26,033 nt of DNA from Alphaproteobacteria bacterium (lineage in GTDB: Bacteria; Pseudomonadota; Alphaproteobacteria; UBA828), in assembly GCA_963667785.2 (NCBI GenBank), contig CAXXMU010000012.1:1-26033 (forward strand), read 5' to 3'. This document shows, piece by piece, positions 3,885 to 24,301 of the stretch. Position 1 is the stretch's first letter, and each line of letters starts with the position of its first letter. A program made the position numbers and the translations under genes. Below the pieces are notes generated by a model. That model did no database searches and was not told the DNA's origin. It saw only the letters and a list, made by a program, of their open reading frames with translations.

Positions 3885-5031
3885 GTGAGTCTGCCGAAAG
3901 ACGCCGGGGGGGAGGCGCCGCTCGCCCCCGGCAACGGCGGCGCCTTCCTCCGCATCGAGGGCGTGAGCAAGCGCTTCGGCAGCGTCACCGCCGTCGACGA
4001 CGTCTCCCTCGACATCGGGCGGGGCGAGTTCTTCGCCCTGCTCGGCCCGTCCGGCTGCGGCAAAACCACGCTGCTCCGCATGCTCGCGGGCTTCGAGACG
4101 CCGAGCGCGGGCGCCCTCCTGCTCGACGGCATGGACCTCGCCGCGCTGCCGCCCTACCGGCGGCCGGTCAACATGATGTTCCAGTCCTACGCGCTCTTCC
4201 CCCACATGAGCGTCGCCGGCAACGTCGCCTTCGGACTGCGCCAGGACCGGGTGCCGAGGGCCGAGATCGCGACGCGGGTGGCCGACGCGCTGGCGCTGGT
4301 GGAATTGTCTCCGCTCGCGCGCCGCAAGCCGCACCAGCTCTCCGGCGGCCAGCGCCAGCGGGTGGCGCTCGCCCGCAGCCTGGTCAAGCGGCCCAAGCTG
4401 CTGCTGCTCGACGAGCCCCTGGCCGCGCTCGACAAGAAGCTTCGCGAGCAGACCCAGTTCGAGCTCATGGCGATCCAGCAGCGCGTCGGCATCACCTTCG
4501 TGATCGTGACCCACGATCAGGACGAGGCCATGACCGTGGCCGACCGCATCGCCGTGATGGACAGGGGCCGCATCGCCCAGGTGGACACGCCGTCCGCGAT
4601 CTACGAGGCGCCGTGCTCGCGCTACGTGGCCGAGTTCATCGGCGACGTGAACGTGTTCGAGGGGCGGGCCGGGGCTCCGAACGGCAATGACATCGTGGTC
4701 GATCAGGCCGACGCGCCGGCGGGGCTCGCGGCACCGGCCCCGCGCCGACGGGCCTGCGGCGGGCGATCCCGTGCTGCTGGCGGTGCGGCCGGAGAAGATC
4801 GAGATCGCGCCCGGGCCGGCTCCGCCCGGCGCGGCGAACGCGATGGCGGGCGAAGTGACCGAGATCGCCTACCTCGGCAGCACGTCGACCTACCGGGTGC
4901 GCCTCGACAGCGGCAAGATGGTGGTCTCGACCCAGACCAACCGCCTCGGCCAGGCCGGCGGGACCATCGACCGGGGCGCCCGCGTCCACCTCACCTGGCC
5001 GGTCGAGGCGAGCATCCTGCTCCGCTCATGA
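3885..5031 (+). CDS. potG: Polyamine ABC transporter ATP-binding subunit, frameshifted near 4738-4743
   Basis: Walker A GPSGCGKT, LSGGQRQR, LLLLDEP in the 3885 frame. The TOBE-type C-terminus (LAVRPEKI…GEVTEIAYLG…VHLTW) is in the +1 frame (ORF 4687-5031) and ends at a TGA overlapping the potH ATG (ATGA, 5028-5031). Confidence 0.88.
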
Positions 5032-5957
5032 ACGGCGGCCACGAGCGCCGCACGCCCACAGGCGCAGGCCGGCGGTGGCTCGGGCGCGGCTCGGTGATCG
5101 CGAGCCCCTATCTCTGGCTGCTGCTCTTCTTCCTCGTGCCCTTCGCCATCGTGCTCAAGATCAGCGTGGCCGAGGTCCAGCTCGCGATCCCGCCCTACAC
5201 GCCGCTCTTCGCCTGGCCGGACGGCGGCTCCCTCGAGCTATTCGCGGTCGGCGACAACTACCGGCTCCTGATCGAAGACAGCCTCTACATCCGCGCCTAC
5301 GCCAACAGCCTCAAGATCGCGGCAATCTCGACCGCGCTGGCACTGCTGGTGGGCTTCCCCGTCGCCTATGCCATGGCCCGTGCGCCCCGCGCCTGGCAGG
5401 CGACGCTGGTGATGCTGGTGATCCTGCCGTTCTGGACCTCCTTCCTGATCCGGGTTTACGCCTGGATCGGCATCCTCAAGAACGAGGGGATGCTCAACGG
5501 GATCTTGCGCTGGATCGGCGTGATCGACCAGCCGCTGATCATCCTCAACACCGACATCGCGGTCTACATCGGCATCGTCTACTCGTACCTGCCGTTCATG
5601 GTCCTGCCGCTCTACGCCAACCTGGTGCGGATGGACCGCTCGCTGCTGGAGGCCGCGGCCGACCTCGGCTGCCGCCCGGCCGGCGCCTTCTGGAAGATCA
5701 CCGTGCCGCTGGCGCGGCCCGGCATCGTCGCCGGGTGCTTCCTGGTGTTCATTCCGGCCGTCGGCGAGTTCGTGATCCCCGACCTGCTGGGCGGCTCCGG
5801 CACGCTCATGATCGGGCGGATACTCTGGACCGAGTTCTTCAGCAACCGCGACTGGCCGGTGGCGTCCGCAGTCGCCGTGATCCTGCTGCTGGTGCTGATC
5901 GTGCCCATCGTGCTGTTCCAGCGCCACCAGCAGCGCCAGCGGGAAGCGGACGCGTAA
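5028..5957 (+). CDS. potH: Polyamine ABC transporter permease (PotH/PotB)
   Basis: C-terminal part of ORF 3885-5957: PYLWLLLFFLVPF, VILPFWTSFLIRVYAW, EAA loop SLLEAAADLG, EFFSNRDWPVASA. ATGA overlap with potG. Confidence 0.92.
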   Translation: MNGGHERRTPTGAGRRWLGRGSVIASPYLWLLLFFLVPFAIVLKISVAEVQLAIPPYTPLFAWPDGGSLELFAVGDNYRLLIEDSLYIRAYANSLKIAAISTALALLVGFPVAYAMARAPRAWQATLVMLVILPFWTSFLIRVYAWIGILKNEGMLNGILRWIGVIDQPLIILNTDIAVYIGIVYSYLPFMVLPLYANLVRMDRSLLEAAADLGCRPAGAFWKITVPLARPGIVAGCFLVFIPAVGEFVIPDLLGGSGTLMIGRILWTEFFSNRDWPVASAVAVILLLVLIVPIVLFQRHQQRQREADA

Positions 5958-6775: not shown

Positions 6776-8086
6776 TTACAGCCGGTCGCGCAGCGCGCCA
6801 TAGGCGAGCGCGAGCGCGAGCGTCGGCCAGCGCAGAAACCGACCGCCGGGGAAGGGCGGCTGCGGTAGCCGCGCGAAGACATCGAAGCGTTCGAGGGTGC
6901 CCGAGATCGCTTCGGCGATGAGCGCGCCGCCGAGCGTCGCCAGCGCCACGCCGTGGCCGGAGTACCCCTGCCCGTAGTAGAGCCCGCCCTCGAGCCGGCC
7001 GATGCTGGGCATGCGGGAGCGCGTGATGGCGAGCGTCCCGCCCCAGACATGGTCGATGCCGACGTCCGCGAGCTGGGGGAAGATGCGAAGCATGCAGCGC
7101 CGCACCAACGGGCCGGGATCGGCGGGGAGGCGGCTGCTCGCCGTCTCGCCGCCGCCGAAAAGCAGCCGGCCGTCCGCCGAGAGCCGGAAGTAGTTCACCA
7201 CGAAGCGGGTATCGACGACGGCGACGTCGTTCGGGATCAGGGCGCGGGCGCGTTCGGCGCCCAACGGCTCCGTCGCGAGGATGAAGTTGTTGATCGGCAT
7301 CGCGCGTCTGCCGATGCCGGGGTCCAGCGTATCGAGATAGCCGTTGCAGGCGAGCACGACCGCGTCGGCCGTGACCGTGTGCGGCCCGGCCTCGACCCTG
7401 CAGGGCGCGCCCGGTGCGAGGCCGGTGACGGGCGTCCCCTCGTGGATGTCGACCCCTGCCTCTGTCGCCGCGCGGGCGAGGCCCCGCGCGTAGTCGAGCG
7501 GGTGAAGGTGGCCGGCGCCCCGGTCCGTGAGACCGCCCCAGAAACCCTCGCAGGCCACCTCGGCACGCAGCGCAGCGCGGTCGAGCACGTCCACTTCGCC
7601 GTAGCCGTAGCGCTCACGGAGATGCGCGGCCTCGCGGGCCAGCGCGCGCGCGCGGCGCGGCCGATGCGCGGCGATGGCGATGCCGGGCTTCAGGTCGCAC
7701 GCGATCCCGTGGCGGGCGATGCGGCTGCGGACCAGCGCCTTCGCCTCCTCAGCCAGCGACCAGAGGAGCCGCGCCCGCTCGTTGCCGAGCTCCCGCTCCA
7801 GGGTGAACTGATCGCGCCGGTGGCCGCTGCCGAGCTGGCCGCCGTTGCGGCCGGAGGCGCCGTTGCCGATGCGCCGTGCCTCAAGCAGGAGCGTGGCGTA
7901 GCCGCGCTCGGCGAGATGAAGCGCGCAGGAGAGCCCGGTGTAGCCGCCGCCGATGACGCAGACATCCACGCGCCTGCCGCCGTCGAGCGCGGGCCAGGCG
8001 GGGCTCGTCCTTGCGCTCGCCTCGTACCAGGTGGGCGCGGCGCCGTCGTGCTGCGCGTAGCGCCCGGCGCTTGCCGCCCGCTCCAT
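6776..8086 (-). CDS. puuB: FAD-dependent oxidoreductase, gamma-glutamylputrescine oxidase (PuuB/OrdL) family
   Basis: DVCVIGGGYTGLS, GASGRNGGQ, HLHPLDY, NYFRLSADGRLLFGG, QGYSGHGV. TGATG overlap with the upstream gene; alternative GTG start at 8089. Confidence 0.85.
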   Translation of the reverse strand: MERAASAGRYAQHDGAAPTWYEASARTSPAWPALDGGRRVDVCVIGGGYTGLSCALHLAERGYATLLLEARRIGNGASGRNGGQLGSGHRRDQFTLERELGNERARLLWSLAEEAKALVRSRIARHGIACDLKPGIAIAAHRPRRARALAREAAHLRERYGYGEVDVLDRAALRAEVACEGFWGGLTDRGAGHLHPLDYARGLARAATEAGVDIHEGTPVTGLAPGAPCRVEAGPHTVTADAVVLACNGYLDTLDPGIGRRAMPINNFILATEPLGAERARALIPNDVAVVDTRFVVNYFRLSADGRLLFGGGETASSRLPADPGPLVRRCMLRIFPQLADVGIDHVWGGTLAITRSRMPSIGRLEGGLYYGQGYSGHGVALATLGGALIAEAISGTLERFDVFARLPQPPFPGGRFLRWPTLALALAYGALRDRL

Positions 8087-9444
8087 CACACGGCCAGCAG
8101 GAGGAACTTGCGCTCCCAGGAGCTCACGACGCGCAGATAGGCGTCGTACTCGGCCCGCACGATCTCGCAGAAACCCTTCACGAAGAGATCGCCGAACATC
8201 GCCTGCGCCTCCTCCGAAGCCTCGAACTGCTCGAGCGCCGTCCTGAGGTCGAGCGGCAGGGTCTCGTAGGCGCCGGTCTCCTCGCCGTCTACCGGCGGCG
8301 CGGGCTCGACCGCCTGCGTCATGCCGAGATAGCCGGCGGCGAGCGTGGCCGCGATGGTGAGGTAGGGGTTCGTGTCGGAGCCCGGCAGGCGGTTCTCGAC
8401 CCGACGGTTAGCGGGCGGCGCGTCCGGCACGCGCAGCCCCGCGATGCGGTTGTCGTAGCCCCAGCCCACGTTGAACGGCTTGCTCGCTCCGAAGCGGAGC
8501 CGGCGGAACGAGTTGACGTTGGGCGCCATGAGCGGCGTGAAGGCCGGAAGGAAGCGCTGCAGCCCGCCGAGGTAGTGGCGGAAGGCGGGCGACTCCGCTC
8601 CGTCTTCGTCGGAGAAGAGCGGTCGGCGCGCCGCCCCCTCGTAGACCGACTGGTGCACGTGCATGGCGCTGCCGGGCTCGCTCTGCATGGGCTTCGCCAT
8701 GAAGGTGGCGTAGAAGCCGTGGCGCTGGGCGGTCTGGCGCACCGTGCGCTTGAAGACGAACACCTGATCCGCGAGCCGGAGCGCGTCGCCGTGGCGGAAG
8801 TTGATTTCCACCTGGCCTGCCCCGCTCTCGTGGTTGAGCGTGTCGATGTCGAGCGCCTGGGCCTCGCAGTAGTCGTAGAGGTCCTCGAAGAAGGGGTCGA
8901 ACTCGTTGACCGCGTCGATGCCGAACTCCTGGCGCCCGGCCTCGCGCCGGCCCGAGGCGCCGATGGGCGGCTTCAGCGGCTGGTCGGGGTCCGTGTTCTT
9001 CTCCACCAGGTAGAACTCGATCTCGGGCGCGATGACGGGGTGCCAGCCGCGCTCGGCGAACTTTTCGAGCAGGCTCGCGAGCACGCGACGGGAATAGAAC
9101 GGCGAGTGGCCGCCGCCCCGCAGCACGCAATCGGCGATCACCTGCGCGGTGGGCTCGTCGTACCAGGGCACGAGGGTAAGCGTCGCCGGGTCCGGCTCCA
9201 GCACGAAGTCGCCGTCGCTCACGTCGATGGAGGCGGCGCCGGGCGGCGGGAAGTCGCCTGTGAGCGTGTGGACGAGGACGTTCTTGGGCAGGCGGTGCTG
9301 GCCGCCGGCGAGCCCTTCGATGAACTTGTCGGTGGGCAGGATCTTGCCGCGCGGCACGCCAGCGAGGTCCGGCACGATGCACTCGACCTCGACGATGCCG
9401 CGTTCTCTGAGCCAGGCTTCGATCGCCCGGTGACCGTCATTCAT
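8086..9444 (-). CDS. Glutamine synthetase family protein, probable gamma-glutamyl-polyamine synthetase (PuuA/SpuB-like)
   Basis: PDLAGVPRGK, APEIEFYL, HESGAGQVEINF, TFMAKP, GSAMHVHQS, WGYDNR, RVENRLPGSD. Lies next to a puuB-like gene and pot genes. Confidence 0.88.
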   Translation of the reverse strand: MNDGHRAIEAWLRERGIVEVECIVPDLAGVPRGKILPTDKFIEGLAGGQHRLPKNVLVHTLTGDFPPPGAASIDVSDGDFVLEPDPATLTLVPWYDEPTAQVIADCVLRGGGHSPFYSRRVLASLLEKFAERGWHPVIAPEIEFYLVEKNTDPDQPLKPPIGASGRREAGRQEFGIDAVNEFDPFFEDLYDYCEAQALDIDTLNHESGAGQVEINFRHGDALRLADQVFVFKRTVRQTAQRHGFYATFMAKPMQSEPGSAMHVHQSVYEGAARRPLFSDEDGAESPAFRHYLGGLQRFLPAFTPLMAPNVNSFRRLRFGASKPFNVGWGYDNRIAGLRVPDAPPANRRVENRLPGSDTNPYLTIAATLAAGYLGMTQAVEPAPPVDGEETGAYETLPLDLRTALEQFEASEEAQAMFGDLFVKGFCEIVRAEYDAYLRVVSSWERKFLLLAV

Positions 9445-15993: not shown

Positions 15994-16608
15994 TTGTTCA
16001 AACTCAAATTGCGACGGCCGACCGTCTTGCTCGCGCTTGTCGCCGCGGCGGGGATCATGATGAGTGACCAGACCGAGACACGAGCCGACGAGGGCGCAAG
16101 CCCTGTCGTTACGTTCGAGACCACGCACGGCTCGTTCGCCGTCGCGCTGGAGCCGGAGGCCGCGCCCGAGACCGTGGCGAACTTCGTCCAGTACGTCCGC
16201 GACGGCCATTTCGACGGGACCATCTTCCACCGCGTGATCGCGGGCTTCATGATCCAGGGCGGCGGCTACACCGAGAACTACCAGCAACTGAAGACGCGCG
16301 CGCCGATCGAGAACGAGGCGCCGAACGCGCCGGGCAACGACCGGGGCACGATCGCCATGGCGCGCACCGCGGATCCCCACTCCGCCACCGCGCAGTTCTT
16401 CATCAACGTGGTCGACAACGACTTCCTCAACCACCGCGGCAAGAACCCGCAAGGCTGGGGCTACGCCGCGTTCGGCCGGGTGGTAGACGGCATGGAGACG
16501 GTGGACCGCATCGCCGCGCTCAAGACCGGCCCGGGCGGCCCCTTCCCGAGCGACGTGCCGCAGGAAGCCGTGGTCATCAGCAAGGCGAGCGTCAGCGGCG
16601 GCTCCTGA
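15994..16608 (+). CDS. Cyclophilin-type peptidyl-prolyl cis-trans isomerase, probably periplasmic (PpiA-like)
   Basis: APETVANFVQY, GTIFHRVIAGFMIQGGG, RGTIAMART, HSATAQFFIN, GYAAFGRVVDGM. Signal-like N-terminus; exact start uncertain. Confidence 0.93.
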   Translation: MFKLKLRRPTVLLALVAAAGIMMSDQTETRADEGASPVVTFETTHGSFAVALEPEAAPETVANFVQYVRDGHFDGTIFHRVIAGFMIQGGGYTENYQQLKTRAPIENEAPNAPGNDRGTIAMARTADPHSATAQFFINVVDNDFLNHRGKNPQGWGYAAFGRVVDGMETVDRIAALKTGPGGPFPSDVPQEAVVISKASVSGGS

Positions 16609-16644
16609 TCGGCACGCGCTGAACGCTCATTAGCGGTCCGGGCG

Positions 16645-18249
16645 ATGCGATCGGACCACCAGGCGGACTATATCGTCGTCGGCGCCGGCTCCAGCGGCAG
16701 CGTGGTCGCCGCCCGGCTCTCGGAGGACGGACGCAGCAAGGTGCTGCTGCTCGAGGCCGGCGGCTCGGACCGCCGCCTCGTCATCCTGATGCCGGCGGGC
16801 ACCATGCTCTACGGCATCACCAACCCGCGCTACGACTGGCGTTTCATGGCCGAGCCCGACCCCACCCGCGGCGGGCGCGAGGACTACATGCCGCGCGGCA
16901 AGGTGCTGGGCGGCACCAGCTCGATCAACGCCACCTCGTTCGTGCGGGGCGCGCCCGAGGATTACAACGAATGGGCAGCCCTCGGCTGCCGCGGCTGGGA
17001 CTTCGAGCACGTGCTCCCCTACTTCCGCCGCCTGGAGGATTTCGAGGGCGGTGCCGACGAGTACCGGGGCGCAGGCGGGCCGCTCTCGGTCTCCCACATC
17101 CGCTCGCTGCACCCGCTCTCCCGCATCCTGGTGGAGACCTGCGTGAATGCGGGCATGACCTTCCGCGAGGACATCAACGCGCCGCCGCAGACGGGTGTGG
17201 GCTACGTCCAGGCGTCCCAGCGCAAGGGCTGGCGCCACAGCGCGTCGCGCGCCTACCTCTGGCCGGCCAGGGGGCGCGAGAACCTGCGCATCGTCACCCA
17301 TGCCCAGGCGCTCGGGCTCAGGTTCGAGGGCACGCGCGCCGTCGGCGTGGACTACGTCCGGCGCGGCCGGCGCGAGCAGGCCACCGCCGCCAAGGCAGTC
17401 GTCCTCTGCGCCGGCACCTTCGGCTCGCCGCAGCTCCTGATGCTCTCCGGCGTCGGCCCCGCCGCCCACCTCCGCGCGCACGGCATCGAGGTGCGCCATG
17501 ACCTCCCCGGCGTCGGTGAGAACATGCAGGACCATGCCGGGATCAGCCAGACCATGTGGGTCAACCGCACGACCTACAACGTGCAGACCGGGCTCCTGAG
17601 CGCGCTCTTCCACGGCGCCCGGTGGCTGCTGGCGGGCACGGGGCCTGCGTCCACGCCGATTGCCCAGGTCTTCGGCTTCCGCCGGTGCGATCCGGGCAAG
17701 TCGCGCTCCCACGTGCAGTACATGTTCTCGCCGGCGGGCTACGACCTTACCGCCGACGGGCCGGAGGTTTTCGAGAGGCCCGCGATCACCGGGCTGACGA
17801 CGCTGCACCGGCCCTATTCCGCCGGCACGGTGCGCCTCGCCTCGGCCGACCCGCTCGCCCAGCCCGCGATCCAGCCCAACCTCTTCGCCGACGAGCGCGA
17901 TATCGAGACCCTGGTGCTCGGCGCCCGCTTCTTCCGCACCGTGCTCGCGAGCGAGCCCATCTCACGCTACATCGTGGGCGAGCATCTGCCCGGCAAGGGC
18001 GTGGAGAGCGACGAGGAGTGGCGGGCGTACATCCGCGCCAACGCCATCGGCGTCTATCACCCCGCCGGCACCTGCAAGATGGGGCACGACCCCCTGGCAG
18101 TGGTCGACGACGGCCTCAAGGTGCACGGGCTGGAGGGGCTCTACGTGGCCGACGCCTCGATCATGCCGACCGTCGTCAGCGCCAACCTCAACGCCACCTG
18201 TATCATGATCGGCGAGCGCGCAGCCGAGTTGATCCGCGCCGCCGCCTGA
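16645..18249 (+). CDS. GMC family oxidoreductase (choline dehydrogenase-like, substrate unknown)
   Basis: [45 protein letters not shown], and the His/Asn pair [10 protein letters not shown] … SANLNA. Confidence 0.93.
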
Positions 18250-18288
18250 GAGTTACCGCATCAACGAGCAGAAACAGGGAGGACCCCC

Positions 18289-18597
18289 ATGCCCTACACC
18301 GTCGCTGCAGCCCTCAGGGTCAAGAAGAAGCACGTCGCCGAGTTCACCCGGCTGGTGAAGCGCCACGCCGCCAACAGCGTGACCAAGGAGGCGGGCTGCG
18401 TCTCCTTCGAGGTCTCCGTCGACCGCGACGACCCCAGGCGCTTCCTCTTCTACGAGATCTATCTCAGCGAGGCCGACTTCCAGGCCCACACCGAGACGCC
18501 GTGGTTCAAGCGCCAGATGGAGCGGACGGGCCACATGGTCGACGGCGATTTCGAGATTCTCTGCTTCGGCCACCGCATCGCCGCGCCCAACAAGTAG
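18289..18597 (+). CDS. Antibiotic biosynthesis monooxygenase (ABM) / LsrG-like dimeric alpha-beta barrel protein
   Basis: EAGCVSFEV…DDPRRFLFYEIY…DFQAHTETPWF pattern; strong GGGAGG RBS. Confidence 0.85.
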   Translation: MPYTVAAALRVKKKHVAEFTRLVKRHAANSVTKEAGCVSFEVSVDRDDPRRFLFYEIYLSEADFQAHTETPWFKRQMERTGHMVDGDFEILCFGHRIAAPNK

Positions 18598-18610
18598 CGG
18601 CGCTGACGGC

Positions 18611-18931
18611 TTATCGGGTGTACCGCGACCAGAGGGCCGACGGGTCGGGCCGTTTCTCGTGCTTGGCGGCGGCCTCGGCGATCTCGACCTCGCTGGGCCC
18701 GCCGTGCTCCAGCGCCCGGAAAGCGCGGACCACGGGGCCCGCCCGGTTCGCATGGCGCTTGGCGGCCAGGCTGATGGGCTCGTGCAGCGCGCCCGAGCAG
18801 TGGGCGCAGGGCCAGGCGAGGCGGGCCATCAGCGCGGCCGCTTCGCCGCCGGGATAGCGCTCCAGCAGCTGCACGATGGTCGTCGAGCCGGTGATCGGCT
18901 GAGCCGCGTGGGCCCTGCCGGGGGCGGGCAT
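18611..18931 (-). CDS. Small CxxC protein, DUF1858-like (hybrid-cluster-associated redox disulfide domain)
   Basis: 106 aa hidden at the tail of shadow ORF 18611-20416: PITGSTTIVQLLERYP…WPCAHC…HEPISLAAKRH. Starts 11 bp after the LarA-like stop. Confidence 0.68.
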   Translation of the reverse strand: MPAPGRAHAAQPITGSTTIVQLLERYPGGEAAALMARLAWPCAHCSGALHEPISLAAKRHANRAGPVVRAFRALEHGGPSEVEIAEAAAKHEKRPDPSALWSRYTR

Positions 18932-18942
18932 GGCCGCCTGCC

Positions 18943-20358
18943 CTACTCCGCCGCCTCCGCCAGGGGCTCGACCTCCACGGGCATGCGGATCGCATCGCGC
19001 GGCAGCTGGTAGCGCGCGAACGGCAGCACCGCGACCCTGGCGTCGGGCCCGTGGCGCGCCATCGCCGCGGCGAACGCGTCCTCCAGCGAAGTGCCGGCCT
19101 CGATACCGATATCGGCGGCCATCTCCAGGTTCTCCTCCAGCGTCACCACGTGGAGGTGCTTGCGCACCATGACCTCGTAGATCGGCACCCAGATGCAGCC
19201 GGCCCACATCTCGATGGTGCGGCTGTGGATATCGCGGTAGACGCGCTCCAAGTTCGCGGGCGAGGGTGGCATGTAGGGCTTCATCAGGTCCATGAGCGCG
19301 AGCCCGGGGAAGTCGCCGAGATGCGTGCTCACGCCGGGCGACGGGCTGCAGTAGATGAGCGTGCCTCCGTCCTTCACCAGAAGATCGGACGACATGCAGC
19401 CCCAGCCGGTGTGGAAGAAGAGATGGTCGGTCGGCGCGAAGACGCCGCAGATGGCGATGTCTGCCGGGTCGCCGGCCGGGCGGTCGTAGGCGTAGATGCC
19501 GTTGAAGGTGCGGATCGCCTCGCGGTGCGCGTCCGGATGCGCGCCGAAGTTGATGAAGCAGAGGCTGCCCTTCGTATCCAGCACGCTGTTCAGCGTCGCC
19601 GTGAGCCCGCACATGGTGGCGGCCTCGTCGATGTCGGTCCGCATCGGGCCGGCCATGGCGCCGTAATGGGTCTTGGGCGACATCACGAAGGCGCAGTGGT
19701 TCGATTCGATCGTCTCGTCCGAAACCACGCCGGGCAGGATCAGCTTGCCGCCGCCGCCCGCGCCCCAGTGGTTGGACTGCGCCTGGCCCATGGAAAGCGT
19801 GACGTCGGACTTCGCCACCTCCCTGTGCAGCCAGACCGGCGTGCCGCCCGTGGTCATGCCGATGAAGACGTACTGCTCCGGGTCGCGCGGCTCGTTCTGG
19901 AAGAAGGGGATGCCGAGGCGCTCCATGCGCGCGAGGTTCTCGCGGCCGAGCTTCAGCTCCGTGTCGCGCTCCGACATGGGGAAGACCTTGCCGTTGGCGC
20001 AGACGACACGCGCGTCCCTGATGCCGTGCTCTTCCACGGCATCCAGCACCGCCGGCAGCAGCTTCGAGGTGGGCGTCGGGCGGAACTGGTTGTCGATGAT
20101 GACGGCGAGGCTCTTGTCGGGCCCGATCATCTGAGAGAACGGCGGGCCCGAGTGCGGCGCTTCCAGCGCAGCCGCGCACGCCTCCGTCGGGTTCGCGAGG
20201 GGCTGAGGCTCGTCCGGAAAGAGCGCCGCAAGCAGGTTGGTCTCGGGGATGTCGAGGGTCAGCGTCTCGCGATAGACCATGGACGGATCGTCGGCCGAGC
20301 CGATGGTCAGCGGATCGAGGGATTCGTAGGGGATCACCGCGCGATAGGTGTCGGACAT
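18943..20358 (-). CDS. Lactate racemase (LarA / DUF2088) superfamily protein with an atypical active site
   Basis: ATG at 20358 with AGGAGG RBS. LarA-like blocks ALEAPHSGPP, AVIIDNQFRPTP, GMTTGGTPVWL, GGGGKLILPGV, TIESNH, VKDGGTLI, DARVAVLP. Confidence 0.85.
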   Translation of the reverse strand: MSDTYRAVIPYESLDPLTIGSADDPSMVYRETLTLDIPETNLLAALFPDEPQPLANPTEACAAALEAPHSGPPFSQMIGPDKSLAVIIDNQFRPTPTSKLLPAVLDAVEEHGIRDARVVCANGKVFPMSERDTELKLGRENLARMERLGIPFFQNEPRDPEQYVFIGMTTGGTPVWLHREVAKSDVTLSMGQAQSNHWGAGGGGKLILPGVVSDETIESNHCAFVMSPKTHYGAMAGPMRTDIDEAATMCGLTATLNSVLDTKGSLCFINFGAHPDAHREAIRTFNGIYAYDRPAGDPADIAICGVFAPTDHLFFHTGWGCMSSDLLVKDGGTLIYCSPSPGVSTHLGDFPGLALMDLMKPYMPPSPANLERVYRDIHSRTIEMWAGCIWVPIYEVMVRKHLHVVTLEENLEMAADIGIEAGTSLEDAFAAAMARHGPDARVAVLPFARYQLPRDAIRMPVEVEPLAEAAE

Positions 20359-20493
20359 CGCCGCCCTCCTGCATCTGAGCCGGCCTGAGGCCGCGAAACT
20401 GGCGTTCCCGCGCCAAGCCGAGTGTAATGGACCGTGCCGGCTATGCACAGGGCGCGCCGCCTGCGGAGCGTCCGACACAGGGGGGAATTCAAC

Positions 20494-22521
20494 ATGGCGG
20501 CCTATCCTCGGCTTTTCTCGGAATGGAAAATTCGCAACACCACGGTCAAGAATCGGGTGGTGTTCCCGCCGACCTGCCCGAGCTGGGTCTCCGACCCGTG
20601 GAACGGGCTCTTCATCGACATGGCGACCCACTACTACCGGGAGCGCGCCGAGGGCGGGGTCGGCCTCATCATCATCGGGGGTACTCACGTCCACAAGAGC
20701 TCGATCATGGCGCCGCTGCTCATGCCGCAGCTCTTCGACGACCGGCAGATCGAGCCGCTGTCGAAGATCGCGGACGCGGTCCATGCCGAGGGCTGCAAGC
20801 TCGCGATCCAGCTCTGGCATTCGGGCGTGCGCGGCTTTCCCACCTTCAAGCAGGAGGCCACCTACGACCCGGACGCGACCTGGTACACGCTGTCGCCGAG
20901 CCAGGTGCCCCTGGGCGAGTTCCCCGGCGCGTCGACGCCCAAGGAGCTCGACGAGGACGAGATCGAGGAGCTGCTGGCGGCCTTTGGCAGCGCTGCGGAG
21001 CGCGCGTTCGCGGCGGGCCTCGACGGGGTGGAGCTTCATCTCAGCCACGGCTACCTGCCCTGGCAGTTCATCTCGCCGCTCTACAACAAGCGCACCGACC
21101 GCTGGGGCGGCTCGCTGGAGAACCGCCTGCGCTTCCCGCTCGAAGCGTTGAAGCGGATGCGGGCCGCCGCCGGCGACGACAGGTTCGTCGGCTACCGCAT
21201 CAACTCGACCTCGTTCTGGCCGGGCGACCTCGAAATCGACGAGGTGCGCGACATCGTCGCCGAGATCGAGCAGCGGTCCGATATCGACTACGTCAACGTC
21301 TCGGCCGGCGTGCACCACGCCTTCATCCACACGCCGATGGAGTTCGAGGCCGGCTGGGAGCGGGGCTACGCCCGCAAGATCCGCGAAGTCTCGTCGAAGC
21401 CGGTGCTGCTGGTGGGCCGCATCACCACGCCGGACGTGGCCGAGCAGCTGCTGGAAGCGGGCGACGGCGATGCGATCTGCCTCGCGCGCCAGCTCTTCAC
21501 GGACCCCCACTGGGCCAAGAAGGCGGAAGAGGGCAACACCGACGACATCCGCTCATGCGTCGCCGCCAACTTCTGCTGGAAGAGCGTGAGCCGGGGCGGC
21601 CGGGTGCAGTGCATCTACAACCCCACCGTGGGCCGCGAGGAGGCCTGGGGCGAGGGCACGCTGGTCAAGGTGGCGGAGCCCAAGTCCGTGCTGGTCATCG
21701 GCGGCGGCCCGGCGGGGCTCGAGTATGCGCGCGTGGCCTCCGCCCGCGGGCATGACGTGACCGTCTACGAAGCCGAGGGCGAGACCGGCGGCCACGTGCG
21801 GGTGCAGTCGCTGCTGCCGACCCGCGCCGAGTACGGCGAGATCGGCCGCTGGCTTGCGGCGCAGGCCGAGAAGAACGGCAGCCGCATCGTCACCGGCGCG
21901 CCGGTGACGGAGGAGGACCTGGACCAGGCGCTGGAGGCGGCGAAGCCCGACCATGTAGTGGTGGCCACGGGCTCCGCCGTCGCGGTCGACGGCTTCCAGG
22001 GCTGGACCGGCGATCCGCTCCCCGGCTGGGAGAGCGGCAACTGCGTCGGCTGGGACACGGTGGCGCAGGGCCAGGCCCGGCCGCGCGGCAGGGTGATGGT
22101 GCTGGACGACCTCTGCGACGTGGTGGCGCCGCTCACCGCCGTCGCCTGCAAGGAGGGCGGCGCCGACGAGGTGACGCTCGTCACCCGCTGGCCCATGATC
22201 GGCATGGAGACCATCCTCGACGTCTACCTCGACTGGATCCTGCCCAAGCTCTACCAGACGGGCGTGACGGTCTGCGTCGATCACTTCGTCCGCCGCATCG
22301 AGGGCAGCACGGTGACGCTCTACAACGTTCACCACGAGGAAGCCGAGCGGCAGATCGAGGCGGACTGGATCGTCATGGCGACGGGCCGGCGCTCCGTGAA
22401 TTCGCTGCACGGGGCGGTCGCGGCCCGCGGCGTCTCGGTCGAGACCATCGGCGACGCCACCGCGCCCCGCACCGCCTACGAAGCGGTCTATGAAGGCCAC
22501 CGCCAGGCCCGCAAGCTCTGA
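20494..22521 (+). CDS. NADH:flavin oxidoreductase (old yellow enzyme barrel + Fe-S + FAD/ADP domain), TMADH / 2,4-dienoyl-CoA reductase family
   Basis: KNRVVFPP, ERAEGGVGLII, AGLDGVELHLSHGYL, NKRTDRWGGSLENRLRF, C-x5-C-x11-C, VLVIGGGPAGLE, TIGDA. ATG at 20494 after GGGGGA. Confidence 0.92.
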   Translation: MAAYPRLFSEWKIRNTTVKNRVVFPPTCPSWVSDPWNGLFIDMATHYYRERAEGGVGLIIIGGTHVHKSSIMAPLLMPQLFDDRQIEPLSKIADAVHAEGCKLAIQLWHSGVRGFPTFKQEATYDPDATWYTLSPSQVPLGEFPGASTPKELDEDEIEELLAAFGSAAERAFAAGLDGVELHLSHGYLPWQFISPLYNKRTDRWGGSLENRLRFPLEALKRMRAAAGDDRFVGYRINSTSFWPGDLEIDEVRDIVAEIEQRSDIDYVNVSAGVHHAFIHTPMEFEAGWERGYARKIREVSSKPVLLVGRITTPDVAEQLLEAGDGDAICLARQLFTDPHWAKKAEEGNTDDIRSCVAANFCWKSVSRGGRVQCIYNPTVGREEAWGEGTLVKVAEPKSVLVIGGGPAGLEYARVASARGHDVTVYEAEGETGGHVRVQSLLPTRAEYGEIGRWLAAQAEKNGSRIVTGAPVTEEDLDQALEAAKPDHVVVATGSAVAVDGFQGWTGDPLPGWESGNCVGWDTVAQGQARPRGRVMVLDDLCDVVAPLTAVACKEGGADEVTLVTRWPMIGMETILDVYLDWILPKLYQTGVTVCVDHFVRRIEGSTVTLYNVHHEEAERQIEADWIVMATGRRSVNSLHGAVAARGVSVETIGDATAPRTAYEAVYEGHRQARKL

Positions 22522-22567
22522 ACGTTCCCGAGAATACCCGCCCCTCACCAACACAAGGAGCACCGCG

Positions 22568-22861
22568 ATGCCCGCCGCTTACCTCATCTCGACCTCGGAG
22601 ATAACCGATCCTGATCTGATGCAGGAGTACGTCAAGAAGGCAGGCCCGACGGGCGGCCCCTACGGCGCAGAGCTGCTTGCCTCCACCACGGAAGTCGCGC
22701 ACATGGACGGTACCTGGAAGCCGTCCCGCGTGGTGGTCTTCCGCTTTCCCAGCATGGAACGGGCCAAGGCCTGGTACAACTCACCCGAGTATCAGGCGAT
22801 CGTGGACATGCGGTTGCAGGCCGCCGAGAGCAGCCTCATCTTCGTCGAAGCCTTGGAGTAA
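22568..22861 (+). CDS. DUF1330 family protein (dimeric alpha-beta barrel)
   Basis: MPAAYLI…ITDPD…EY…YGAE…VVVFRFPSMERAKAWYNSPEYQ…R; AAGGAG RBS at 22555-22560. Confidence 0.88.
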   Translation: MPAAYLISTSEITDPDLMQEYVKKAGPTGGPYGAELLASTTEVAHMDGTWKPSRVVVFRFPSMERAKAWYNSPEYQAIVDMRLQAAESSLIFVEALE

Positions 22862-22876
22862 CCCCCGCGCGCCGCT

Positions 22877-24301
22877 TCACGCTCCGGGCGTATCGGCCAG
22901 GAAGTGCCCAATGGCGTTGGCGTAGTAGCGCAGCATGTCGCGCTCGTCCTCGTTGGCGCGATAGAGCCCGTCCGACTCCGTCACGAAGTGGCGGAGCGTG
23001 AGCATGCGCAACCCCACGGTGACAGCGTAGTCGCGGTCCGCGCGGGGGATGTGGACGTAGGCGCCCTCGCCCTCCAGCCGGTCGATCAGGGCCTGGGTGC
23101 GACCCTTGATCTCCAGCAGGTCGAGCGCCTCGTCGCTTGAGTCGAGGAACACTGTCGCGACCAGGGATACCGGCAGCACGGGGATCGCCGCGGCGATCGC
23201 GTCCAGCAGTTCGCCGCCGAGTTTTTCGACGGCCTCGCGGCGGGCGTCCTCCTCCAGGGCGCGGAAGTCGATCCCGCCCGCCTTCACGTAGTCCCGCATG
23301 GAGATCGGCGTCGCGAAGTTCACGCAGGCGTAGCCGAAGCGGTACCAGCGCCGCCGGATCATGAGGCCCACGTTGTGGGCGACGAACCCAGCCGCGGTCG
23401 CGAGCACACGTGCCTTGCCGGGGCGGGGCTCGCCGGGGGCCGGCGCGCGCACCAGCATGCGGTCCTCCAGCACGCGGTCGTAGTTGATGCCGACGGGCAC
23501 GAAGACCAGGTCGCGGGAGCCTTCGGGGTCGAAGGACGAGACCATGTAGCTGATAAGGCCGAGCTTGGGCCTCCGCAGGCGTCCGTCGCGGCTGAGCCCG
23601 CCCTCGGGGTAGACCGCCTGGACCACGCCGCCGGCGGTCGCCGCCTGCACGTAGCGGGCGAGCACCTGGCGGTAGAGGCGGCTGCCCGAGCCGCGCCGCA
23701 CGAAGTAGGCGCCGAGGGAGCGCACCAGCATCCTGAGCGGCCAGACCCGCGCCCACTCGCCGACGGCATAGCTGAGCGCCGAGCGATGCGCCGCCATGTA
23801 GGCGACGATCACGTAGTCCATGTTGCTGCGGTGGTTCATCACGAAGACGACGCTCGCGCCGGGCTCGATGCGGGCGAGCGCCTCGTCGTCGGAATAGCCG
23901 AGGCGCACGCGGTAGAGGCTCTCCACCGCGCGCCTGGCGACGTGATAGCCGATGCGGAAGTAGGCGTAGGCGTTGAAGGAAGGCACGATCTCGCGGGCGT
24001 AGCGCTCCACCTGCCGGCTCAGCACCTCGCGCGGCGTGCCTGTGGCCTTGGCCTCGGCGTCGATCGCCTCCATCACCTGCGGGTCGTAGCTGAGCTGGTC
24101 GATCAGCACCCGCCGCTTGGTCTGCAGGAAGGGCGGGATCTGCAGCTCCAGCCGCGTGTTGACCTCCTCGATCACGCGGTTGAGGCGGCGGCGCAGAAAC
24201 CAGCGCGCGCTCGGCATCAGGATGCGGTCGAGCGCGGCCCAAAGCGCGAGCGCGCCGACCACCGCGAGGATCCAGAGCGGCAGCGCGAGCGAGCCGGTCA
24301 T
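22877..24301 (-). CDS. Glycerol-3-phosphate / lysophospholipid acyltransferase (PlsB-like)
   Basis: H-x4-D motif NHRSNMD, GAYFVRR, YPEGGLSRDG, FVPVGINYD. ATG at 24301 with AAGGAGG RBS; N-terminal hydrophobic helix. Confidence 0.88.
   Translation of the reverse strand: MTGSLALPLWILAVVGALALWAALDRILMPSARWFLRRRLNRVIEEVNTRLELQIPPFLQTKRRVLIDQLSYDPQVMEAIDAEAKATGTPREVLSRQVERYAREIVPSFNAYAYFRIGYHVARRAVESLYRVRLGYSDDEALARIEPGASVVFVMNHRSNMDYVIVAYMAAHRSALSYAVGEWARVWPLRMLVRSLGAYFVRRGSGSRLYRQVLARYVQAATAGGVVQAVYPEGGLSRDGRLRRPKLGLISYMVSSFDPEGSRDLVFVPVGINYDRVLEDRMLVRAPAPGEPRPGKARVLATAAGFVAHNVGLMIRRRWYRFGYACVNFATPISMRDYVKAGGIDFRALEEDARREAVEKLGGELLDAIAAAIPVLPVSLVATVFLDSSDEALDLLEIKGRTQALIDRLEGEGAYVHIPRADRDYAVTVGLRMLTLRHFVTESDGLYRANEDERDMLRYYANAIGHFLADTPGA

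Follow-up and report, generated by a model that had tools for sequence, protein, structure and literature searches.

A clade of LarA homologues that keeps the nickel-pincer cofactor anchors but not the catalytic histidines is associated with a small PCAHC protein and with furoyl-CoA pathway genes

The window analysed here is a stretch of DNA of 26,033 nucleotides (nt) that makes up the whole of contig CAXXMU010000012.1 (positions 1 to 26,033, forward strand) in the NCBI GenBank assembly GCA_963667785.2, from an Alphaproteobacteria bacterium of the lineage UBA828. On its minus strand, the window encodes a 471-amino-acid (aa) protein of the LarA superfamily (18943..20358), which was characterized from its translated uninterrupted open reading frame (ORF), Pfam Lar_N, hidden Markov model (HMM) alignments and an AlphaFold2 model. 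A 106-aa DUF1858-like ORF (18611..18931, minus strand), characterized by tblastn, alignment, HMM and a fold model, starts 11 nt after the stop codon of the LarA homologue. An earlier note, made from the letters of the window alone, described the larger gene as full-length with a strong ribosome-binding site, and this description holds: the frame of 471 codons is unbroken, and direct reading of the sequence places a Shine-Dalgarno-like AGGAGG (20365..20370, minus strand) 6 nt upstream of the ATG at 20358.

Pfam Lar_N matches residues 31-231 of the larger protein with 110.2 bits (cut-off 23.3), which places it in the LarA superfamily. The LarA_C HMM scores 16.5 bits, below its cut-off of 25. The AlphaFold2 model, built with 65 sequences, has a mean predicted local distance difference test score (pLDDT) of 91.7 and a predicted TM-score (pTM) of 0.90. 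Both domains of the LarA fold are present in it, since the model superposes over approximately 460 columns on LarA structures in Foldseek, with query-normalized TM-scores (TMq) of 0.80 for 5huq, 0.81 for 6c1w, 0.81 for 2yjg_B and 0.79 for 9eid. The best match is 7s91 (E 3.3e-33), and the single-histidine homologues 9q3j and 9q3k rank lower (TMq 0.66-0.70). None of the NCBIfam equivalog models reaches its cut-off: the protein scores 178 of the required 500 bits for LarAH6 malate racemase, 133.1 of 460 for lactate racemase and 51.8 of 740 for LarAH14/15/16, and two further models fall short at 135.1 of 540 and 133.9 of 462.

We took residue equivalences from phmmer and profile HMM alignments to solved LarA structures, with Lactiplantibacillus plantarum LarA (5huq) as the reference. 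In the N-terminal part, N90, R93 and V125 of the query correspond to D72, R75 and H108; in the middle part, N196, H197, W198, K205 and H221 correspond to H174, F175, F176, K184 and H200; and in the C-terminal part, F315, H316, W319, W385 and C388 correspond to Y294, Q295, K298, W358 and Q361. The signature at D72/R75/H108/H174/K184/H200/Q295/K298 is therefore N-R-V-N-K-H-H-W. The earlier note had compared the two proteins by eye. It reported that Arg75, Lys184 and His200 were retained and that five positions were substituted (D72N, H108V, H174N with a His at +1, Q295H and K298W). The profile alignment recovers the same three anchors, the HMM alignment confirms all five substitutions, and the by-eye alignment was right throughout. 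Proper alignment does not bring back His108, His174 or Lys298. The alignment to Mar2 moves the H108 column by one residue, to F126, and none of the alignments to solved LarA structures gives a His in that column.

Conservation was assessed over 200 rows, comprising the query, 79 ORFs from the loci described below and 120 database homologues, with the last two sets overlapping in part. N90, R93, N196, H197, W198, K205, F315, H316, W319, C321, C304 and H312 are each found in 200/200 rows, while position 125, the equivalent of H108, is V in 191 and I in 9. The anchors of the nickel-pincer nucleotide (NPN), namely Arg75 (phosphate), Lys184 (thioamide tether) and His200 (fourth nickel ligand), are represented by R93, K205 and H221, which are kept in 200, 200 and 199 rows. 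The earlier note had allowed that the substitutions might not be shared by homologues; they are conserved in 191-200 of the 200 rows. It had also pointed to extra cysteines in three motifs, two of which stand (C321 in GWGC, 200/200; C388 in WAGC, 198/200), whereas C222 in NHC (166/200) is not fixed. The invariant or nearly invariant cysteines of the family are C120, C250, C304, C321 and C388, to which C337 (166/200) can be added.

The available part of the report on Isosphaera pallida LarA (bioRxiv 10.1101/2024.11.28.625916) describes the lactate carboxylate as bound by Arg73, Gln295, Lys298, His107 and His173, and the 2-hydroxyl group as bound by His107 and Tyr294. Five of these six D-lactate-holding residues are replaced in the window's LarA homologue, the sole survivor being the Arg. 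The remaining pocket is more hydrophobic and aromatic (V125, F126, W198, F315, W319 and W385), and His197, His312, His316, Cys321 and Cys388 are newly fixed in the family.

A word-indexed search scored 8000 candidates, of which 1115 proteins had E <= 1e-10; the top 120 share 70-95% identity with the query across 78-100% of its length. In a scan with one genome per species, relatives were encoded in 315 genomes, most of them titled as uncultured Rhodospirillales and other Alphaproteobacteria, Gaiellales, Thermoleophilia and Acidimicrobiia, with one titled as Competibacterales. Across phyla, members of this main family have a median pairwise identity of 74%. When representatives clustered at 50% identity were searched exhaustively, a few full-length intermediates (36-44% identity) came up, and a maximum-likelihood tree of 65 rows unites them with the main family in a single 17-row clade, which has a Shimodaira-Hasegawa-like approximate likelihood ratio test (SH-aLRT) support of 100. 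The signature common to the clade at the eight positions named above is N-R-(V/L)-(N/E/T)-(K/S/gap)-H-H-W. Among its nearest neighbours in the tree, which are placed with weak support (87), are proteins that retain a single histidine (N-R-H-N-K-H-G-W). The possibility raised in the earlier note, that the protein might belong to a characterized racemase clade, can thus be set aside, as it stands in a separate clade with full support and its best equivalog score is 178 against 500 bits. When 400 sampled Pseudomonadota genomes were searched for the wider clade, the only match was the window's own genome, and a search of a protein atlas returned generic LarA clusters only.

In the distant members P0127, P0128, P0141 and P0142, the His197 column holds Pro or Leu. 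Tungsten/molybdenum-type aldehyde:ferredoxin oxidoreductase (AOR) genes adjoin the LarA homologue in two distant-member loci (L095, 1-4588; L096, 2634-4511), and in two others (L098, 12250-14037; L100, 11431-13174) it adjoins a MoCF_biosynth gene and a QRPTase-like gene. These neighbourhoods hint at a wider tie of the clade to pterin enzymes or to aldehydes and acids.

Gene neighbourhoods were compared in the best 80 of the 315 relatives, with up to 8 kb of flanking sequence. Since these 80 loci are phylogenetically clumped, the counts given here are descriptive and should not be read as independent trials. By tblastn, the small ORF lies directly downstream of the LarA homologue on the same strand in 73 loci. 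Its protein alignment displays an invariant P-C-A-H-C motif together with invariant E51, R59 and H60, and the window's own genome carries exactly two copies of the small ORF, each next to a copy of the LarA homologue. HMM matches of the small protein are weak (TIGR03980, E 9.8e-5, 22.3 bits, cut-off 44.95; PF08984, 14.4 bits, cut-off 32.2). Its fold model (pLDDT 86.8) finds the best Protein Data Bank (PDB) matches in 2k5e and 2k53, which we take to be DUF1858 members, with target-normalized TM-scores (TMt) of 0.75 and 0.72 and E-values of only 0.13 and 0.78. Prediction of a complex between the LarA homologue and the small protein scored 0.19 against a mark of 0.32, which counts neither for nor against binding.

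Genes for NPN biosynthesis are a recurrent part of the same neighbourhoods. Within 8 kb, tblastn detected larB in 25, larC in 23 and larE in 23 of the 80 loci, with all three present in 23, and none of the 80 loci contains a second LarA homologue. At the locus of Microbaculum marinum KCTC 52363 (L031), a culturable carrier, the order is LarA homologue-small ORF-larB-larE-larC. Representative proteins were checked against their models, with LarB scoring 234.8 bits (cut-off 175), LarE 248.8 bits (cut-off 150) and LarC 438 bits. Five genomes with adjacent lar genes were examined. In one of them (G010), the clade protein is the only Lar_N match and sits beside larE-larC-larB; in two others (G008 and G009), no Lar_N match outscores the clade's own members. 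Since larB, larC and larE adjoin in 25 of the 80 loci with no other LarA homologue there, the clade likely uses the nickel-pincer cofactor. In the window's own genome, larC, larE and larB are side by side on contig 1. A fourth, weak Lar_N match (26.4 bits) was also seen in that genome, in an open frame of 458 aa on contig 6 (134541-135032, locus L004).

The second recurrent association is with a catabolic gene string. We clustered the neighbouring ORFs of the loci de novo and set hmf identity by a cluster of Cupriavidus necator NH9 that was recognized from its layout, rather than by the cluster of strain HMF14. Following the LarA homologue and its small partner, the recurrent string encodes the large, FAD and 2Fe-2S subunits of a xanthine-dehydrogenase-family enzyme, an AMP-forming CoA ligase and a crotonase-family protein, so that the usual order is LarA homologue-small ORF-hmfA-B-C-D-E. 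A branched-chain-type ABC transporter is often found upstream, and larE-larC-larB often lies in between. An HmfA-like segment with at least 45% identity to the C. necator hmf-cluster protein occurs in 43 of the 80 loci, and HmfD-like and HmfE-like genes at the same threshold occur in 19 and 18. The reference cluster, on plasmid pENH92 of C. necator NH9, encodes UbiD, UbiX, a GMC oxidoreductase, the large, FAD and 2Fe-2S subunits of a molybdenum enzyme, an AMP-binding protein and an enoyl-CoA hydratase. In the available text of PMC3223595, hmfFGH and hmfABCDE of the 5-hydroxymethylfurfural (HMF) and furoic-acid (Trudgill) pathway are described with the same genes in the same order.

The window's own genome carries such a string away from the window, on the minus strand of contig 1, in the order DLH/SnoaL-hmfA-hmfB-hmfC-hmfD-hmfE-larC-larE-larB-VOC. 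Its HmfA, HmfB, HmfC, HmfD and HmfE are 64, 54, 72, 60 and 67% identical to those of the C. necator NH9 cluster, with the next-best paralogues at 36, 41, 62, 32 and 32%. Among plasmids, 42 records carry a match to the large subunit, with 60-80% identity in 35 of them; these records come chiefly from Paraburkholderia, Cupriavidus, Caballeronia, Dinoroseobacter and Azospirillum. Of ten clade-carrying genomes, nine each have one HmfA orthologue at E <= 1e-150, and in the tenth a partial match lies in the locus (L069); the base rate of HmfA was 5 in 400 sampled Pseudomonadota. The clade appears to occur only where hmfABCDE does, while hmfABCDE often occurs without the clade.

Several features of these hmf clusters are recorded here in their own right. 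Directly upstream of the hmfA orthologue on contig 1 of the window's genome, a 455-aa dienelactone hydrolase (DLH)/SnoaL-like fusion is encoded on the minus strand (L121, 15895-17259), which is a candidate for the lactone hydrolysis and tautomerization steps that have no assigned gene in the available part of PMC3223595. A hicB/hicA-like toxin-antitoxin pair (L121, 13018-13424, plus strand) occupies the 580-bp gap between hmfA and hmfB inside this operon, on the opposite strand. The HmfA homologue of C. necator pENH92 (L122, 8923-11961; 1012 aa) has a C-terminal CoxG/SRPBCC domain, which is absent from the HmfA of the window's genome (L121, 13455-15854; 800 aa) and from the orthologues of approximately 775-800 aa in loci labelled Thermoleophilia, Gaiellales or Actinomycetes. 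CoxG-bearing HmfA proteins occur in two alphaproteobacterial loci (L036 and L092). We considered the LarA homologue as a substitute for this domain and dropped the idea, as these two loci have both. A role as a general maturation factor for molybdenum enzymes is also less likely, because the link is to one HmfA orthologue group and its CoA ligase and thioesterase and not to molybdenum hydroxylases at large, of which the window's genome has about 20 CoxL paralogues. One further molybdenum-hydroxylase set, coxM-coxS-coxL on contig 6 (1006323-1010017; L118, 8323-12017), is approximately 72% identical to a set directly upstream of the LarA homologue in the alphaproteobacterial locus L026 and approximately 31% identical to the HmfA type; it may represent a second pterin enzyme of the same pathway.

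We consider it about 60% probable that the LarA homologue is a working nickel-pincer enzyme that does not racemize 2-hydroxy acids and that, jointly with the PCAHC protein, acts within the furoyl-CoA pathway or before it. Like all functional statements made here, this one draws on sequence, models and gene neighbourhood. The proposal is that the LarA homologue, in which the cofactor anchors are kept and the acid/base histidines are replaced along with the Tyr, Gln and Lys contacting the hydroxyl and carboxylate of the substrate, would bind NPN and work with the small PCAHC protein as a two-gene module serving the furoyl-CoA (hmfABCDE-type, Trudgill) pathway for furan carboxylates. Instead of racemizing a 2-hydroxy acid, it would feed or assist this pathway by converting an acid, aldehyde or thioester, of the furan type or comparably hydrophobic, through a hydride shuttle ('hidden redox'), and the small protein would be a subunit with a redox or metal-binding role. 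Because the DLH/SnoaL fusion more naturally covers the lactone hydrolysis and tautomerizations of the Trudgill pathway, the LarA homologue seems more likely to catalyse a feeder or accessory reaction than a core step. The nickel-cofactor reaction performed is probably one without previous description. The earlier note had left a choice between a nickel-pincer enzyme, differing in its chemistry or acting on a substrate other than a hydroxy acid, and an enzyme with a different cofactor. The former is now favoured, because the anchors are fixed, the lar genes adjoin in 25 of the 80 loci and five of the six lactate-holding residues are replaced, and the latter has become less likely.

A more specific version of this proposal holds that the clade represents the first LarA-type nickel-pincer enzyme that does not invert a 2-hydroxy acid, and that it performs a hydride shuttle without the His pair, with a PCAHC subunit, supplying or processing furans for the furoyl-CoA pathway. 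We regard this version as possible and put it forward tentatively. Candidate reactions would be the redox-neutral dismutation or oxidation of furfural-type aldehydes, or the transient-oxidation-assisted conversion of a precursor to 2-furoate. If it is true, the relatives in anaerobes that lie beside tungsten/molybdenum aldehyde oxidoreductases would do an equivalent job.

A number of observations weigh against the reading of a nickel-pincer enzyme tied to the furoyl-CoA pathway. In solved LarAs, the cofactor ribose is contacted by Asp72 (PMC12611868, in the part available); the equivalent residue here is Asn90 in all 200 rows, and in three of the four most distant clade members Lys184 is Ser, Ser or a gap. 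The small ORF is missing from seven of the 80 loci, two of which stop at contig ends and five of which have room for it. Five metagenomic loci with clade members of 39-43% identity lack the small ORF, lar genes and hmfA nearby, and neither hmf nor lar genes are present within the window. The genome of the window has a canonical LarA on contig 2 with D/R/H/H/K/H/Q/K intact that could be the client of the lar genes, and therefore the presence of lar genes alone proves nothing there. All five examined genomes without adjacent lar genes have LarC plus another, higher-scoring LarA homologue, and because a canonical LarA is also present in them, the genome-level co-occurrence of LarC is uninformative. 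On the pathway side, the five HmfA-bearing genomes among the sampled Pseudomonadota are without the clade, and the hmf clusters of C. necator and Azospirillum oryzae are without LarA or lar genes. According to the available text of PMC3223595, eight hmf genes were enough to give P. putida S12 the use of furfural and HMF, and the LarA homologue is therefore not needed for the core pathway.

The histidines newly fixed in the active-site segments (His197, His312 and His316, each 200/200) could also be read as a relocated acid/base pair, in which case the protein would be a 2-hydroxyacid or 2-hydroxyacyl-CoA racemase or epimerase, with 2-hydroxyglutarate as a candidate substrate through its link to the pathway end product 2-oxoglutarate. 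Arg75 is kept, and GlcD-, GlcE- and GlcF-like 2-hydroxyacid oxidase genes follow in six loci (L035, L040, L043, L045, L048 and L080, assigned to Acidimicrobiia/Acidimicrobiales or simply to 'bacterium'), a Glc-type context being typical of canonical LarA groups in the available part of PMC7583248 (Table S1). However, Tyr294, Gln295 and Lys298 have become Phe, His and Trp, His197 is not kept in the wider clade, no racemase equivalog model is approached, and the dominant context is hmfABCDE rather than hydroxyacid oxidases; on the strength of these residues and neighbours, a 2-hydroxyacid racemase role for the clade is unlikely. The loss of both general acid/base residues with the cofactor anchors kept would equally suit a protein that binds NPN and converts no substrate, be it a tethered hydride or electron carrier or accessory subunit of the molybdenum furoyl-CoA dehydrogenase, with the PCAHC protein as redox partner, or a store or sensor of NPN. 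The tight linkage to HmfABC fits such a role, as does the physiological electron acceptor, shown only as 'ACC' in the available text of PMC3223595, and distant members adjoin pterin enzymes or molybdenum-cofactor genes (AOR in L095 and L096; MoCF_biosynth with the QRPTase-like gene in L098 and L100). We nevertheless judge it quite unlikely, given that a median identity of approximately 74% across phyla and an invariant remodelled pocket suggest a specific site for a small molecule, and that canonical HmfABC systems function without a LarA homologue.

We also judge it quite unlikely that the protein binds no NPN and employs the LarA fold with a different cofactor or ligand, or without any. Such a use would account for the D72N substitution and for the distant members without Lys184; the lar genes of the window's genome could serve its canonical LarA, and the six cysteines that are invariant or nearly so might in principle hold a different ligand. 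Set against this are the constancy of Arg75 and Lys184 (200/200) and of His200 (199/200), the 25 loci in which lar genes adjoin with no other LarA homologue, and the genome G010, whose sole Lar_N match is the clade protein next to larE-larC-larB. Decay of a LarA copy into a non-functional gene, which the loss of residues held essential for the known reaction might suggest, was already thought unlikely in the earlier note and is extremely improbable: the frame is full-length and preceded by a strong ribosome-binding site, the 'lost' positions are invariant in a family with 74% median identity, relatives occur in 315 species genomes, and the model is confident.

The surroundings of the gene pair in the window were also examined. 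A block with the content GMC / ABM / small ORF / LarA homologue / OYE-FAD / DUF1330 / acyltransferase is present twice in the genome, in the window (16030-24000) and on contig 1 (229381-238195, L003), with 86-90% nucleotide identity; the two LarA homologues are 94% and the two small ORFs 86% identical. The two copies may represent two strains rather than paralogues, a possibility that arises because the 26-kb window spans its contig completely and the genome bin has 6.6% contamination. The window neighbours (GMC oxidoreductase, ABM, OYE/FAD oxidoreductase and DUF1330) were not used as pathway clues, as they recur in five to eight of the 80 loci, all from close relatives. Divergently from the LarA homologue, positions 20434-22521 (plus strand) encode a 695-aa protein with OYE-type FMN and FAD/NAD(P) domains, for which the top-scoring model is the FadH/OYE of the mycofactocin system (482.8 bits, cut-off 793) and in which, by eye, the cysteine spacing after the FMN domain seems unlike the usual CxxCxxC. 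Farther away, a 690-codon ORF (3885-5957, plus strand) combines an ABC ATPase domain (38-180) with a binding-protein-dependent permease domain (490-684), which could reflect a genuine transporter fusion or a choice of ORF that joins two genes. Within 6776-9444 (minus strand), a glutamine-synthetase-like gene (193.6 bits on the gamma-glutamylputrescine synthetase model, cut-off 650) lies beside a DAO-family oxidase (194.3 bits on the L-pipecolate oxidase model, cut-off 600), a pair that suggests amine catabolism unrelated to the LarA homologue.

To our knowledge, all LarA homologues characterized so far racemize or epimerize 2-hydroxy acids by means of two histidines. Our literature search found no report of a LarA or nickel-pincer homologue lacking both catalytic histidines, no relevant tie of LarA/DUF2088 to molybdenum hydroxylases, furoyl-CoA dehydrogenase or DUF1858 and, among the matches listed, no link of lactate racemase to furoic acid or furoyl-CoA; a term search of PMC8091172 likewise finds no racemase, nickel, LarA or DUF2088. 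The motifs DNQFRP, SNHWG, HTGWG and CANGK are absent from the 354-sequence table of Desguin et al., 2020 (PMC7583248). No motif of the clade occurs in one supplement file of Urdiain-Arraiza et al., 2024 (PMC11770544), whose tree of 1212 sequences may hold unnamed members. Non-racemase chemistry of the nickel-pincer cofactor has been raised as a question in the available text of Desguin et al., 2020 (PMC7583248) and Gatreddi et al., 2025 (PMC12611868). With the His pair gone, the anchors invariant and the biosynthesis genes in the same operons, the clade offers a defined test case for such chemistry, and the obligate-looking small partner and the furoate/furoyl-CoA context narrow the search for a substrate. 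Our findings also point to unrecognized accessory functions in bacterial furan degradation, which is of practical interest for detoxifying lignocellulose hydrolysates.

Compared with the LarAs of L. plantarum (5huq, 6c1w) and I. pallida (9eia, 9eid), the clade has the same two-domain fold (TMq 0.79-0.81), the same Arg75/Lys184/His200 anchors and linked lar genes. It is only approximately 20-22% identical to them, however, with both catalytic His and Tyr294/Gln295/Lys298 replaced and Asp72 changed to Asn, and it differs in having a conserved small partner and a context of furoate catabolism instead of lactate metabolism. Malate racemase Mar2 of the LarAH6 group (6d6z, 7s91) is the best match overall (phmmer 1.1e-29, profile 1.1e-43, Foldseek 3.3e-33); unlike those of the clade, its catalytic and substrate positions still carry D, H, H, Q and K, and the LarAH6 model scores 178 bits against its cut-off of 500. 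Precedents for deviation at the catalytic positions exist among the LarAH groups in the available part of Desguin et al., 2020 (PMC7583248), where groups 14/15 are without His174, group 17 has Asn there, and groups 12/13/16 are without conserved catalytic and NPN residues; the clade differs from groups 12/13/16 in keeping its NPN anchors.

Structures of two single-histidine homologues, LarA_Bw and LarA_Sp (9q2u, 9q3k, 9q3j), were reported by Gatreddi et al., 2025 (PMC12611868), and according to the available text no LarA homologue with a substituted His174 had been characterized until then. Like the clade, these proteins have an invariant Asn in place of His174, and non-canonical chemistry has been proposed for them. 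They keep His108 and Asp72 and have Lys for Arg75, so that Asn174 is all that the clade shares with them; they match the query weakly (2.5e-11 and 1.7e-8), and the context proposed for them in the same source is carbohydrate metabolism.

The small partner resembles the DUF1858 or 'hybrid cluster protein-associated redox disulfide' domain (PF08984, TIGR03980) in being short and helical with a Cys-x-x-Cys in the same place. It differs in its PCAHC motif and extra invariant Glu, Arg and His, scores below both model cut-offs, and is tied to the LarA homologue rather than to a hybrid-cluster protein. The clade-linked catabolic genes, finally, have the same composition and order as the hmfABCDE cluster of Cupriavidus (Koopman 2010, as presented in the available part of PMC3223595), with 54-72% identity to that of C. 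necator NH9. Whereas canonical hmf clusters carry hmfFGH (UbiD, UbiX and a GMC oxidase) and no LarA or lar genes, the clade loci add a LarA homologue, its small partner and often larB, larC and larE.

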